Below are positions 1 to 58,482 of a DNA stretch of 64,000 nt, one piece after another. Numbering within the stretch: the stretch's first letter is position 1; the number at the start of each line of letters is the position of its first letter. The notes below the pieces were generated by a model, which saw nothing but the letters and a program-made list of their open reading frames with translations, had not been told where the DNA came from and did not search any database. The position numbers and the translations under genes are program-made. The stretch comes from a virus (taxonomy: Duplodnaviria; Heunggongvirae; Uroviricota; Caudoviricetes): the IMG/VR virus record IMGVR_UViG_3300028584_001242; one strand, 5' to 3'.

Positions 1-1214
1 TTGAGTTTTCACCAACAGGTGAAATAATAACAGCCAATGAGAAGTTTTTAAATTTAATGGGATACTCCCTAAATGAAATAGTAGGGAAAAAACATTCTAT
101 ATTGTGTGACAAACTATATGCAAACAGTGCTGATTACAAAAAGTTTTGGAATAAGTTAGAAGCGGGTGAATATATATCTGATATGTTTAAAAGACTTGAT
201 TCAAAACAAAAAGAAATATGGCTAGAAGCTTCTTACAATCCTATATTTGATAATAACAACAAAGTAGTAAAAGTAATAAAATTTGCAAACGATATTACTA
301 GATATGTAGAGGAAAAAAATGAAGATAAAAGTAAATTAGATGCCCTTAATTCATCTATGGCTGTTATTGAGTTTACACCTGAAGGTATTATTTTAAATGC
401 AAACAATAACTTTTTATCAACAACTGGTTATACATTAAAAGAAATAGTGGGTAAACATCATAATATATTTTGCGAAAAAGCGTATAGTCTTCATTCAGAA
501 TATAAAAGGTTTTGGCAAGATTTAAAAAATGGGCAATTTTTTAATGGTCAATTTAAAAGATTAAATAAACAAGGTAATGATATATGGCTTGAAGCAACTT
601 ATAATCCAATAAGAGACGAAAATGGAAACGTAGTTAAAATTGTTAAATTTGCAAGTGACACCACAAAATTAGTTAACCAATTAGATGCTCAAAAGAAAAG
701 TGCAGAACTTGCATTTTCAATATCAAATAATAATAAAGAAACAGCACAAATCTCAGTAACTACAATAAATGAAACAAATAATGAAATGACAAACATTATA
801 AAATCAGTCAGTGCCACAGAGATTCATTTAAAGTCATTAGAAAAACAATCTGAAAAGATTAAAATGATATTAAATGCTATATATAAGATTGCAACACAAA
901 CTAATTTGTTAGCGTTAAATGCTGCAATTGAAGCCGCCAGAGCTGGAGATGCTGGAAGAGGTTTTGCAGTAGTGGCTAAGGAAGTAAAAGAATTATCAGG
1001 CAATACAAGTGACTTAGTTAAAAGTATTTCTGAAATAATAGAGGAAATTAATAAAGAAACAGAATGTGCGGTTAAACAAATGGAAAGTGTAACTCAGAAC
1101 ACAGAAAGAAGTGTAACATTAATGATTGAAGTCGAGCAGTTAGTGACTGAAATAAGTATCGGCTCTGATAAAATATTATCAGCTATTGCCCAATTATCAA
1201 AAGAGTTAAGTTAA
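1..1214 (+). CDS. methyl-accepting chemotaxis protein with tandem PAS domains (aerotaxis-like), 5'-partial
   Basis: The reading frame is open from nt 3, upstream of the listed ATG at 57. Repeated PAS blocks ([43 protein letters not shown]) precede a C-terminal MCP signalling motif [32 protein letters not shown] terminator follows. Confidence 0.8.
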
Positions 1215-11778: not shown

Positions 11779-11800
11779 TTTTTCCAACAGTAATAAAAAA

Positions 11801-11824
11801 GGCCCGCAGAAGCGGGCTTTTTGT
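11801..11824 (+). terminator. terminator GCCCGC-agaa-GCGGGC plus T6
   Basis: Hairpin with T-run. Confidence 0.6.
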
Positions 11825-11898: not shown

Positions 11899-11917
11899 CG
11901 TTTGTATCTTAAATTAG

Positions 11918-11990
11918 GAGGACCGACTGGGACTCGAACCCAGAATTCATCCGGTTAAGGACGCTTGTTCCCGTTAAACACCACCGGCCC
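11918..11990 (-). tRNA. tRNA-like gene with a contracted 6-nt anticodon loop (possible non-canonical tRNA or pseudo-tRNA)
   Basis: Acceptor GGGCCGG/TCGGTCC with two G-U pairs, D-arm TGTT-TAACGGG-AACA, canonical T-arm CTGGG-TTCGAGT-CCCAG. The anticodon arm folds only as CGTCC-TTAACC-GGATG. It has its own consensus promoter and terminator. Confidence 0.5.
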
Positions 11991-12065: not shown

Positions 12066-12121
12066 CAAGATCATCAATTATTTTGAAAAGAAAATAGTCT
12101 TTTTATGATGATAAAAAGGTT

Positions 12122-12150
12122 GCATTTAACTGACAAATTTGATAGTATAG
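12122..12150 (+). promoter_or_regulatory. sigma70-like promoter TTGCAT-N17-TAGTAT, divergent from module C
   Basis: Read from the sequence. Confidence 0.4.
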
Positions 12151-12156
12151 CTTTGG

Positions 12157-12331
12157 AGATGCGGGATGAGAAGAAACTCATCTTTCAGGGTTGTTGTTTA
12201 GCATCCGATGACCATTCAGAGGCTCTGCCGACATGGTAGCTCGTCATACGCTGGTGATGTATGATGGAAAACCGCACCGCATAAAAGGAGTCCAATCTTC
12301 TTTTTGGGAGAGGCTAAATGCCTCTTTTTTT
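12157..12331 (+). ncRNA. candidate small RNA N1 (about 170 nt, GC-rich island between promoter and terminator)
   Basis: No ORF longer than 26 aa. Terminator GAGAGGC-taaat-GCCTCTT plus T8. Contains GCATCCGATGACC and UUUUUGGGAGAGG motifs shared with N2 and N3. Confidence 0.4.
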
Positions 12332-12384
12332 TCGTCTATGAAAAACTAATAAGCATAAAAAAGCCACCGAAGTAGCTTTAATCA

Positions 12385-13158
12385 TTATGGTAAAGGCGTG
12401 TAATAGCGATCTGGATGAATCATATCGATCAAAAAGATGAACTCTTTCTTATTTGCAGACTCACTAGCTTTGAACTCAACCAGTAAGGCGTTATAGAAAG
12501 ATTTATAGTCAGCCAACGAAACAAAACCACCTGTATCACTCAACATCTTTTTAAAAGATCCTACTGATTGTGGAAGTGGAAGTAGATCGACAATCTCAAT
12601 GATCTTAGTCGATTTGAAATCCATTAACTTTAAGGCATCCAAGTTATTGGAGATTTCTTTCAATGTTGAATAATCATGAGTTGCGAGAGCTTTTGAGAAT
12701 TTAACGCCAATAGGTGACTGTGCAAAATTTGGGTTTGCTTTTACTGAACTATCATAAAGACGACTAATAGGAGCATACATGAACTCATCAGTGCTTTGGT
12801 ATTGGTAAGCAATCATTCCAACTGGAATAAGTGAAACCACTGTATATAAAATAGATCTTGACCAGCTTATTCTATTTATCCAAGAAAAAATCGTATATAA
12901 AATAAGAAAACAATATAAAATACCAAACATCATCATAATATAAAAGAAAGACTGATCTACACTAAATGGGGCAACTTTCGCATATTGATAATCACTAGTT
13001 AAAGCCACTTTATGATTGATTAACGCCACTACTGTACTGGTGGATGTATATAATAAAAACATTGTTACAAGAACAAAAACAGCTCCTGTCATATAAATTT
13101 GAAAATTAGAATGTTTTCGTTCAATAGTGGTTTTATCAACTTCTTTTGAATTATCCAT
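12385..13158 (-). CDS. polytopic membrane protein, 257 aa
   Basis: Multiple hydrophobic helices. AGGAG RBS. AT-rich. Confidence 0.6.
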   Translation of the reverse strand: MDNSKEVDKTTIERKHSNFQIYMTGAVFVLVTMFLLYTSTSTVVALINHKVALTSDYQYAKVAPFSVDQSFFYIMMMFGILYCFLILYTIFSWINRISWSRSILYTVVSLIPVGMIAYQYQSTDEFMYAPISRLYDSSVKANPNFAQSPIGVKFSKALATHDYSTLKEISNNLDALKLMDFKSTKIIEIVDLLPLPQSVGSFKKMLSDTGGFVSLADYKSFYNALLVEFKASESANKKEFIFLIDMIHPDRYYTPLP

Positions 13159-49597: not shown

Positions 49598-49670
49598 GGC
49601 TGTATGATGGGACTCGAACCCACGACTACCGTTTTTCGACGGAGTTCTGCCGACTGAACTACAAACAGCC
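49598..49670 (-). tRNA. tRNA-like gene with a contracted 6-nt anticodon loop, CCA not encoded
   Basis: D-arm GTTC-AGTCGGCA-GAAC (A14, G18/G19), T-arm GTGGG-TTCGAGT-CCCAT, 6/7-bp acceptor. The anticodon arm folds only as CCGT-CGAAAA-ACGG. It lies immediately downstream of basic-peptide gene 3. Confidence 0.45.
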
Positions 49671-57913: not shown

Positions 57914-58111
57914 CTTGTGAAGCTCCGTCTCTGTTTGTGTGGGGTAATTATAACAACGAAACACCTCAATGACAACACTTTATTCAATCATTTTTAAGTT
58001 TTTTCAAAAAACGCTACGAATAAATATTGATCCTTAATTATCTCACAAAATTCAAAGCTTGTAAATCCACCAGAATAGGGTTTTAGTTATTTTTGATGAA
58101 AAAAGAGTAAT

Positions 58112-58144
58112 AAAAAACCCTAATGGCTCTCACCAAAAGGGTTT
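58112..58144. terminator. bidirectional terminator AAACCC-N18-GGGTTT with flanking A and T runs
   Basis: It ends candidate RNA N3 on the minus strand. Confidence 0.5.
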
Positions 58145-58433
58145 ATGTTTTTTTAGAATTAATGAAATTGCATTAAAGAAAACTTCATTGAAGGATTTCT
58201 CTAATACAATCTGATCAAGTCAGATTGCAGAGCAGTCGCTACCTAACTCAAGTGCCGAAGTCTTGCGATCCTTTCTGCTAAGAAAGTTAACGGCGTTTTC
58301 CCCTTGCAGTCCCCAATGGTCGAGGCCAATCCCATCAGAATGAGTGTCCGCACAAAGACCTCCCAATGCTCCCAATGTCAAAAATATGACAACAGTTGTG
58401 CCTTACGAGAACATAAATGGATCTCGTATCGGA
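58145..58433 (-). ncRNA. candidate small RNA N3 (about 320 nt including terminator, GC-rich island)
   Basis: Between the perfect consensus promoter and the terminator. The longest ORF has no SD. Contains GCAUCCGAUAC, CAUUGGGAGCAUUGGGAGG, and hairpin CAAUCUGA-ucaag-UCAGAUUG. Confidence 0.45.
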
Positions 58434-58440
58434 TGCCACA

Positions 58441-58469
58441 ATTATACGACAAAATGAGAAAGGTGTCAA
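58441..58469 (-). promoter_or_regulatory. perfect consensus sigma70 promoter TTGACA-N17-TATAAT
   Basis: The -35 box is at plus 58464-58469 and the -10 box at plus 58441-58446. Confidence 0.65.
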
Positions 58470-58482
58470 AGCTTTTCAACAA

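Follow-up and report, generated by a model that had tools for sequence, protein, structure and literature searches.

The window analyzed here, a 64,000-nucleotide (nt) stretch of the IMG/VR virus record IMGVR_UViG_3300028584_001242 (Caudoviricetes), contains at positions 12120-12332 of the plus strand a self-contained unit, N1, which consists of a promoter with an extended -10 element, a predicted transcript of approximately 178 nt, and a terminator with a U8 tail (Table 1). Upstream on the same strand are a gene for a 52-amino acid (aa) protein and a gene for a 69-aa protein with a terminator (11797-11822). Between this terminator and N1 lies a tRNA-like gene on the minus strand (11917-11990), with a perfect TTGACA-N17-TATAAT promoter (12065-12037). 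Downstream, N1 is convergent with a minus-strand gene for a 257-aa membrane protein (12385-13158) that has its own terminator (12379-12360), so that, counted from that of N1, a second, bidirectional terminator is located between N1 and this gene. A preliminary description of the locus had proposed that N1 encodes either a small RNA (sRNA) or a leader-peptide attenuator of the membrane-protein gene. The promoter, the hairpin GAUGAG-AAGAAA-CUCAUC (12165-12182), and the terminator that it named are all present where it placed them.

Table 1. Predicted features of the N1 unit (window coordinates).
Feature	Position	Strand	Description
Promoter	12113-12148	+	A-tract 12113-12116; -35 TTGCAT 12120-12125; 17-nt variable spacer; TG 12140-12141; -10 TAGTAT 12143-12148
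Predicted transcript, 178 nt	12155-12332	+	5' end from the -10 position and the invariant GG; 3' end at the U-tract
P1 helix	12158-12205	+	GAUGC 12158-12162 with GCAUC 12201-12205; encloses P2 and the joining strand
P2 hairpin (the hairpin of the preliminary description)	12163-12184	+	GGGAUGAG 12163-12170 with CUCAUCUU 12177-12184; A-rich hexaloop AAGAAA 12171-12176
Joining strand P2-P1	12185-12200	+	UCAGGGUUGUUGUUUA; conserved part UUCAGRGUUG, four positions variable
P3 hairpin	12209-12239	+	UGACCAU 12209-12215 with AUGGUAG 12233-12239; 17-nt loop UCAGAGGCUCUGCCGAC 12216-12232
P4 hairpin, 10 bp	12241-12267	+	12241-12250 with 12258-12267; loop 12251-12257 holds the invariant UGGU 12252-12255
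ACC + purine	12276-12279	+	ACC invariant; ACCG here, ACCA in other lineages
Linker and P5	12280-12305	+	A-rich linker; variable A/U hairpin P5, 12283-12290 with 12297-12304
Intrinsic terminator	12306-12332	+	GGGAGAGGC-UAAAU-GCCUCU + U8; stem core invariant in 11/11 copies

Relatives of N1 were recovered by exact-protein look-up of its 257-aa neighbor, by look-ups of the homologs of this protein (52-83% identity), and by exact-pattern scans. This yielded 9 distinct orthologs and 1 tandem paralog from at least 15 metagenome samples; the copies in loci L001-L003 are near-identical, and those in L004-7/L014, L023, L013, L020/22, L025, L011/15, and L017-19 are increasingly distant. All loci carrying N1 have it in the same place: it follows the terminator of the 69-aa gene, and the gene after it is convergent. 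The identity of the N1 core to that of L004, L020, L011, and L017 is 87, 89, 78, and 78%, respectively, the flanking genes being 62-84% identical at the DNA level, and 41 of the 44 positions in alignment columns 45-88 are invariant among the 9 distinct orthologs. The unit is accessory, as it has been lost in one lineage, where the 2 flanking genes are 55 bp apart (L008/L009), and tandemly duplicated in another (L025, 1409-1886), where each of the 2 units has its own promoter and terminator. The upstream unit of this pair is a divergent paralog that scored 58.6 bits, versus approximately 150 bits for the orthologs; it has a new P2 with a GNRA loop and a new P3 loop, and its 3' scaffold and terminator are unchanged. 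The window itself holds no paralog detectable by blastn or with 2 covariance models (filters off). Public phage genomes contained no N1 homolog when searched by blastn with a word size of 11, and a search of IMG/VR returned neither relatives of either flanking protein nor the exact N1 core; a degenerate pattern of the 3' module had no match there. N1 had been described as divergent from the tRNA-like promoter, which is true of the window lineage; in all other lineages the tRNA-like gene is absent beside N1, and N1 is therefore independent of it.

The hexamers of the N1 promoter match the consensus at 7 of 12 positions, and the site is missing from the list produced by a generic promoter scan. 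Judged by the hexamers alone, the predicted promoter is weak relative to the consensus and at chance level. However, the promoter class to which it belongs, TTGY-N16-TGnTAnnAT (extended -10), occurs at 19 sites in the window when 0.84 +/- 0.83 are expected, and no shuffle reached 19. All but one of these sites are on the minus strand, which carries most of the window open reading frames (ORFs), and the single site on the plus strand is that of N1. Because the other 18 sites lie on the strand with most ORFs, this class is the ordinary promoter type of the element. In addition, alignment of the upstream regions of 11 copies showed that AAAA, TTG, TTTG, TA..AT, and a GG at the predicted start are invariant and that the spacer varies. 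Since the class is enriched in the window and the signals are invariant in 11/11 copies, the N1 promoter is credible, and by these 2 independent tests we take it to be real. The conserved signals predict that N1 is transcribed from the standard extended -10, σ70-type promoter of the element.

The terminator hairpin GGGAGAGGC-UAAAU-GCCUCUUUU (12306-12328), with a T-run on to 12332, has a loop that is invariant in the orthologs and differs by 1 base in the paralog. It is constant across lineages, whereas the neighboring terminators vary between lineages. Tails of U8 to U10 are present in 11/11 copies, with a conserved A-rich stretch before the terminator, and the predicted transcripts of the orthologs (157-178 nt) share the same start and end points. 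Thus, N1 combines an independent promoter with an intrinsic terminator whose U tail is at least 7 nt long, the combination by which Hfq-type sRNAs are recognized. Region 12155-12280 has a G+C content of 51%, versus 32-43% over the window.

The comparison of the related sequences also supports a fold with 3 arms, formed by P1-P2, P3, and P4. In the core MAFFT alignment (A4), which was not fitted to the structure and in which P1, P2, the central hairpin, P4, and a 2-bp closing helix were assessed, 98.9% of the cells are paired and 6 pairs have changed on both sides. The covariation score of this alignment was reached by 0 of 500 shuffles, and slid controls were 29-48% paired. When the paralog was added, 11 pairs changed on both sides and 97.4% of the cells were paired; this paralog-inclusive alignment was fitted to the structure model, which biases it toward the structure. 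Independent minimum-energy folds of L011 and of the paralog reproduced P1 to P4. The single-sequence fold showed a modest gain over shuffles (z = -2.1); the strong evidence for the predicted fold is the comparison of related sequences and not the folding energy. G-U pairs are frequent among the conserved ones and would read as A-C on the complementary strand; the RNA strand is hence the plus strand, as the promoter and the U tail also indicate. A tRNA-like reading of the core on the minus strand was dropped, because it is lost in the paralog and the G-U pairs are specific to the plus strand.

In P1, pair 6-49 is U-A, C-G, or U-G, pair 4-51 is G-C in the orthologs and A-U in the paralog, and pair 3-52 is G-C or, in 4 of the 11 copies, C-G. 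P2 has 3 pairs changed on both sides and 100% of its cells paired, and the paralog has here an unrelated stem sequence with a GCGA tetraloop. In P4, 4 pairs have changed on both sides and 98% of the cells are paired. For the central hairpin, RNAalifold proposed CUGCC/GGUAG (columns 71-85). This was dropped in favor of P3 (columns 55-61 with 79-85), because both the compensatory change of ACCAU/AUGGU to ACCAC/GUGGU in the paralog and the G85A change in L011, by which U55-G85 becomes U-A, fit P3. A likeness of the RNAalifold hairpin to a type I-F CRISPR repeat was also dropped, as the 3' handle of the repeat is absent and the fold that the data support is a different one. Among the orthologs, the P3 loop varies at one position (G68A, seen in L017/L019), and the paralog has another loop; the G68A substitution, the only one in the loop, falls within the proposed triloop. 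As for the closure of the junction, ACC-purine can pair with the 5' GG (P0) or with the UGGU of the P4 loop (pseudoknot). Each pairing holds in 11/11 copies, so that P0 and the UGGU/ACCR pseudoknot are each compatible with all 11 sequences; neither is proven by covariation. P5 is dispensable, since it is deleted in the L011/L017/L019 lineages.

We then considered whether N1 could serve as a short mRNA or have a dual function. The complete ORFs inside the transcript have 11, 18, and 26 codons, and a 44-codon ORF begins upstream of the promoter. The candidate products would be an 11-codon peptide (MRxNSxFRVxx; MRRNSSFRVVV in the window) or the 13-codon peptide MTIQRLCRHGSSS, encoded within the core. 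Both frames retain their AUG and stop codon in all orthologs, GGAG is found 7 nt before the first AUG in the window, and the 13-codon ORF shows 3 synonymous and 2 amino-acid-changing substitutions. However, variation in the 11-codon ORF is non-synonymous in 5 codons and synonymous in 1, a base located before the AUG covaries with one of the variable sites, and GGAG is replaced by GGGG or GGUG in other lineages. The AUG codons lie inside P2 or beside P3, that of the 11-codon ORF being within the P2 stem and its GGAG within P1. Several of the "synonymous" sites of the 13-codon ORF are P4 stem positions whose partners outside the ORF change in step, and the 3' part of the unit has indels of 1, 3, and 19 nt. 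Moreover, in the paralog the first ORF is cut to 3 codons and the second codes for an unrelated peptide, with every helix kept. Several tiny ORFs thus persist because the nucleotides are conserved, and these patterns show that N1 is not selected as a peptide; an mRNA function is highly improbable. The preliminary description had named conservation of the tiny ORF as a peptide as an observation that would speak against its proposal, and what we found instead were mostly non-synonymous changes and loss of the ORF in the paralog. A hydrophobic small ORF, an opposite-strand gene, and repeats, by which type I/III toxin-antitoxin RNAs are recognized, were not found at N1. Altogether, N1 is conserved, autonomous, structured, non-coding, and accessory, and we consider it very probably a genuine structured non-coding RNA gene. 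The sRNA proposal is thereby borne out by a conserved unit with its own promoter and terminator, by compensatory base changes, and by the lack of a conserved peptide.

The second proposal, a leader-peptide attenuator of the membrane-protein gene, fared differently. N1 does contain a terminator and tiny ORFs, but the membrane-protein gene runs toward N1 on the other strand and has its own terminator, and no co-oriented gene follows N1 in any of 10 loci, which means that N1 is not a leader. Gene orientation by itself refutes the attenuator, to which we give next to no credence. In addition, the ORF has no run of regulatory codons; 5 of the 11 positions of its peptide are variable, and only 3 codons are left in the paralog. 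A search that was not exhaustive saw no conserved alternative to the terminator, and the paralog lacks the AGAGGC repeat of the P3 loop. We also considered a riboswitch-like sensor, whose terminator would control read-through antisense into the convergent membrane-protein gene. The aptamer-like junction is followed directly by an intrinsic terminator, a convergent gene is directly downstream in every locus, and the AGAGGC of the P3 loop is the sequence of the 5' arm of the terminator. N1 also resembles riboswitch aptamers joined to terminators, including trans-acting terminated riboswitch transcripts, in its closing helix, multi-helix junction, GNRA or A-rich loop, and terminator directly downstream. 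Unlike riboswitches, it has no regulated downstream gene, no match to a riboswitch in Rfam, and no conserved antiterminator. Against such a sensor stand also the second, bidirectional terminator before the convergent gene, the presence of a different convergent gene in L013, the absence of AGAGGC in the paralog, which retains the same terminator, and the shortened linker of the L011 group, which leaves no candidate antiterminator. Hence, we regard a riboswitch-like function as very unlikely.

These data lead us to propose that N1 is probably an independent gene for a structured RNA of approximately 160-180 nt of an uncultivated phage-like element, with a trans-acting riboregulator as the most likely function. 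That N1 acts in trans is inferred. Regulation by base pairing is a tentative assignment, to which we give somewhat less than an even chance, and it is favored by the stand-alone layout, the U8 to U10 tail with its A-rich stretch, the near-invariant 17-nt P3 loop, and the sibling with a changed P2 and P3 loop. In the supported fold, P1 is stacked on P2, and the arms would be held together by pairing of the 5' GG or of the P4 loop with the conserved ACC-purine. According to the riboregulator proposal, the near-invariant P3 loop and the joining strands would recognize a target RNA, either of the host or of another part of the element, and the A-rich linker and the long U tail may serve as a handle for a chaperone of the Hfq or ProQ type. 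The paralog would have a different specificity, with the 3' scaffold kept and P2 and the P3 loop exchanged. The adjacent 69-aa protein was examined as an Hfq-like partner and this was not supported: Foldseek gave nothing below E = 0.14, hhalign a probability of 1.8%, with no profile similarity to Hfq, BLASTP no alignment, and Pfam and PDB no sequence match. Its model is a generic small beta-barrel, and its gene persists where N1 has been lost.

Several observations weigh against a riboregulator that acts by base pairing, or limit the evidence for it. Within the 64-kb window there is no complementarity of at least 11 nt to the conserved core, and duplexes with the translation-initiation regions of the window, all of which were included, had energies no better than those of shuffled probes. 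The junction fold, the A-rich or GNRA apical loop, and the 41 invariant nucleotides are more elaborate than what is found in most base-pairing sRNAs, and this fold would suit an RNA that binds a protein or a ligand equally well. Both ends of the transcript are predicted from sequence. Finally, the sample is small, with roughly 5 independent lineages and one paralog, and several of the compensatory changes are shared by descent.

The same features bear on the possibility that N1 is a compact RNA that binds a protein or a small ligand and functions as a decoy, sponge, scaffold, or ribozyme, including a decoy or sensor in tRNA biology. The 3-arm junction closed by a short helix or a pseudoknot favors this, as does the P2 apical loop, which is always A-rich or, in the paralog, GNRA; loops of both types are typical donors of tertiary contacts. 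The invariant core positions include apparently paired ones, the terminator loop is nearly invariant as well, and no antisense target was found in the window. The neighborhood, with tRNA genes, 2 odd tRNA-like genes, and 2 Rnl1-type RNA ligases nearby, would fit the tRNA variant of this explanation, in which the UGGU loop is complementary to the ACCA 3' ends of tRNAs or to the ACCR of N1 itself. On the other hand, covariation was never seen for the UGGU/ACCR pairing, N1 matched no Rfam model of a riboswitch, ribozyme, T-box, or tRNA even at E values up to 10, and no partner protein could be identified, the upstream 69-aa protein being a generic beta-barrel kept where N1 is lost. We consider a binding RNA unlikely as a whole, though not markedly so. 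In a more specific form, N1 would be no antisense regulator but a compact effector RNA of a giant phage-like element, with a fixed 3' scaffold (P3 stem, P4 UGGU loop, and ACCR) and, as in the tandem paralog, exchangeable P2 and P3-loop modules; it would bind either a protein or tRNAs, the latter at their ACCA ends or loops. This we regard as quite unlikely.

From the comparison with known RNAs, N1 founds a new family of RNAs whose general kind is known. At the gathering thresholds of Rfam 15 (4227 models), only 3 tRNAs of the window passed and N1 had no match. At E values up to 10 (window, L013, and L025), nothing was found over the N1 core, and the matches listed were terminator-driven or very low-scoring. 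N1 was not called as a tRNA cloverleaf by ARAGORN, nor by RF00005 at E up to 10. Its likeness to tRNA-Thr (a UAGCUC stretch and a CUGGUAA loop) is short. The class closest to the riboregulator proposal is that of the trans-acting sRNAs of phages and prophages with Hfq-type terminators (DicF, IsrK, StxS, and the Pas sRNAs; bioRxiv 10.64898/2026.05.13.724894). Like these, N1 stands alone as a gene of a mobile element; it has a σ70-type promoter, ends at an intrinsic terminator whose tail has at least 8 U residues, and is accessory, being lost or duplicated, with sibling copies in which the recognition region has changed. It differs from them in having no sequence or covariance-model similarity to any Rfam sRNA and in its 3-arm junction and long invariant core, which are far more elaborate. 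PA5oct, a jumbo phage, has orphan transcripts of 236-619 nt, ncRNA001-004, which are defined by RNA-seq only and have no described structure (PMC7318152). N1 is likewise an orphan non-coding RNA, and PA5oct is a giant phage with tRNA-Leu/Met approximately 87% identical to those of the window; model R2 gave no match on ncRNA001 and ncRNA002, the 2 of these 4 transcripts that were searched. Phage T4 also encodes small RNAs among the tRNA genes of a large lytic-type genome, rnaC and rnaD (species 1 and 2 stable RNAs). These are cut from the tRNA precursor transcript and have tRNA-like ends, whereas N1 has its own promoter and terminator, and model R2 (filters off) scored at most 6.8 bits on the T4 tRNA region and did not match rnaC/rnaD. 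To our knowledge, rnaC and rnaD are still unexplained decades after their discovery.

The surroundings of N1 look like the early region of a very large phage. The window contains 111 short ORFs, mostly on one strand, and only about a dozen of its 67 larger ORFs have a Pfam domain. Its gene content includes the 2 Rnl1-type RNA ligases, several HNH endonucleases, a NUDIX hydrolase, and tRNA-Leu/Met, from whose clusters N1 is 2-6 kb away, and none of 50,697 phage records gave a nucleotide match to the window. At the edge of this otherwise phage-like region, a gene (57-1214, plus strand) whose product is a methyl-accepting chemotaxis protein with PAS domains may mark a boundary with host DNA or be cargo. 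The phage-like region abounds in genes without known relatives, and its relatives in L004, L011, L014, and L023 are embedded in metagenome contigs, far from the ends; these contigs are 678 kb, 1.07 Mb, 1.28 Mb, and 1.86 Mb long. Phage genomes of up to 841 kb have been reported (bioRxiv 10.1101/2025.02.27.640493), and the contigs reach beyond this size. They could be a chromosome carrying a prophage or island, or a very large element.

The 2 tRNA-like genes of the window (11917-11990 and 49598-49668, both on the minus strand) have shortened anticodon loops, and ARAGORN assigns a 2-base anticodon to each; they may be decoys or unusual tRNAs. The first scored 26.4 bits, under the Rfam threshold of 29, and is present only in the window lineage, and in L001/L002 a C-G pair of the T arm is replaced by A-U, a compensatory change. 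The second carries in its D-loop and D-stem (49640-49648, minus strand) the sequence GUCGGCAGA, the exact complement of UCUGCCGAC in the P3 loop of N1 (12224-12232, plus strand). This complementarity is only a lead, since chance alone would give the window approximately 4 such 9-mers. Another orphan unit, on the minus strand at 58108-58470, has a perfect TTGACA-N17-TATAAT promoter (58468-58440), a length of approximately 320 nt, and a terminator near 58150-58113; it has no convincing ORF, a fold z-score of -2.6, no Rfam match, and no relationship to N1. We took it to be the unit N3 of the preliminary description, which it probably is. Motifs shared with N3 had been reported there for N1, and homology is not supported as their source: the 2 covariance models (filters off) found no second copy of N1 in the window, and this unit shares with N1 only one 9-mer, expected approximately 0.2 times by chance.

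The well-supported fold, the clear transcription unit, and the natural loss and duplication variants make N1 usable for experiments, in which the paralog marks out candidate specificity elements. The extended -10 promoter class is in turn useful for annotating the transcription units of the element. The comparative evidence is clean, and nothing yet points to an unusual function. If N1 is a simple riboregulator, it would be a useful but ordinary addition to the catalog; if it is an effector, it could be, for example, a decoy or sensor in a tRNA cleavage-repair conflict, to which the tRNA-like genes and the Rnl1 ligases point. Conserved structured RNAs of large phages are rare and mostly unexplained, and N1 provides a compact case. 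It also draws attention to a lineage of very large phage-like contigs about which little is known.
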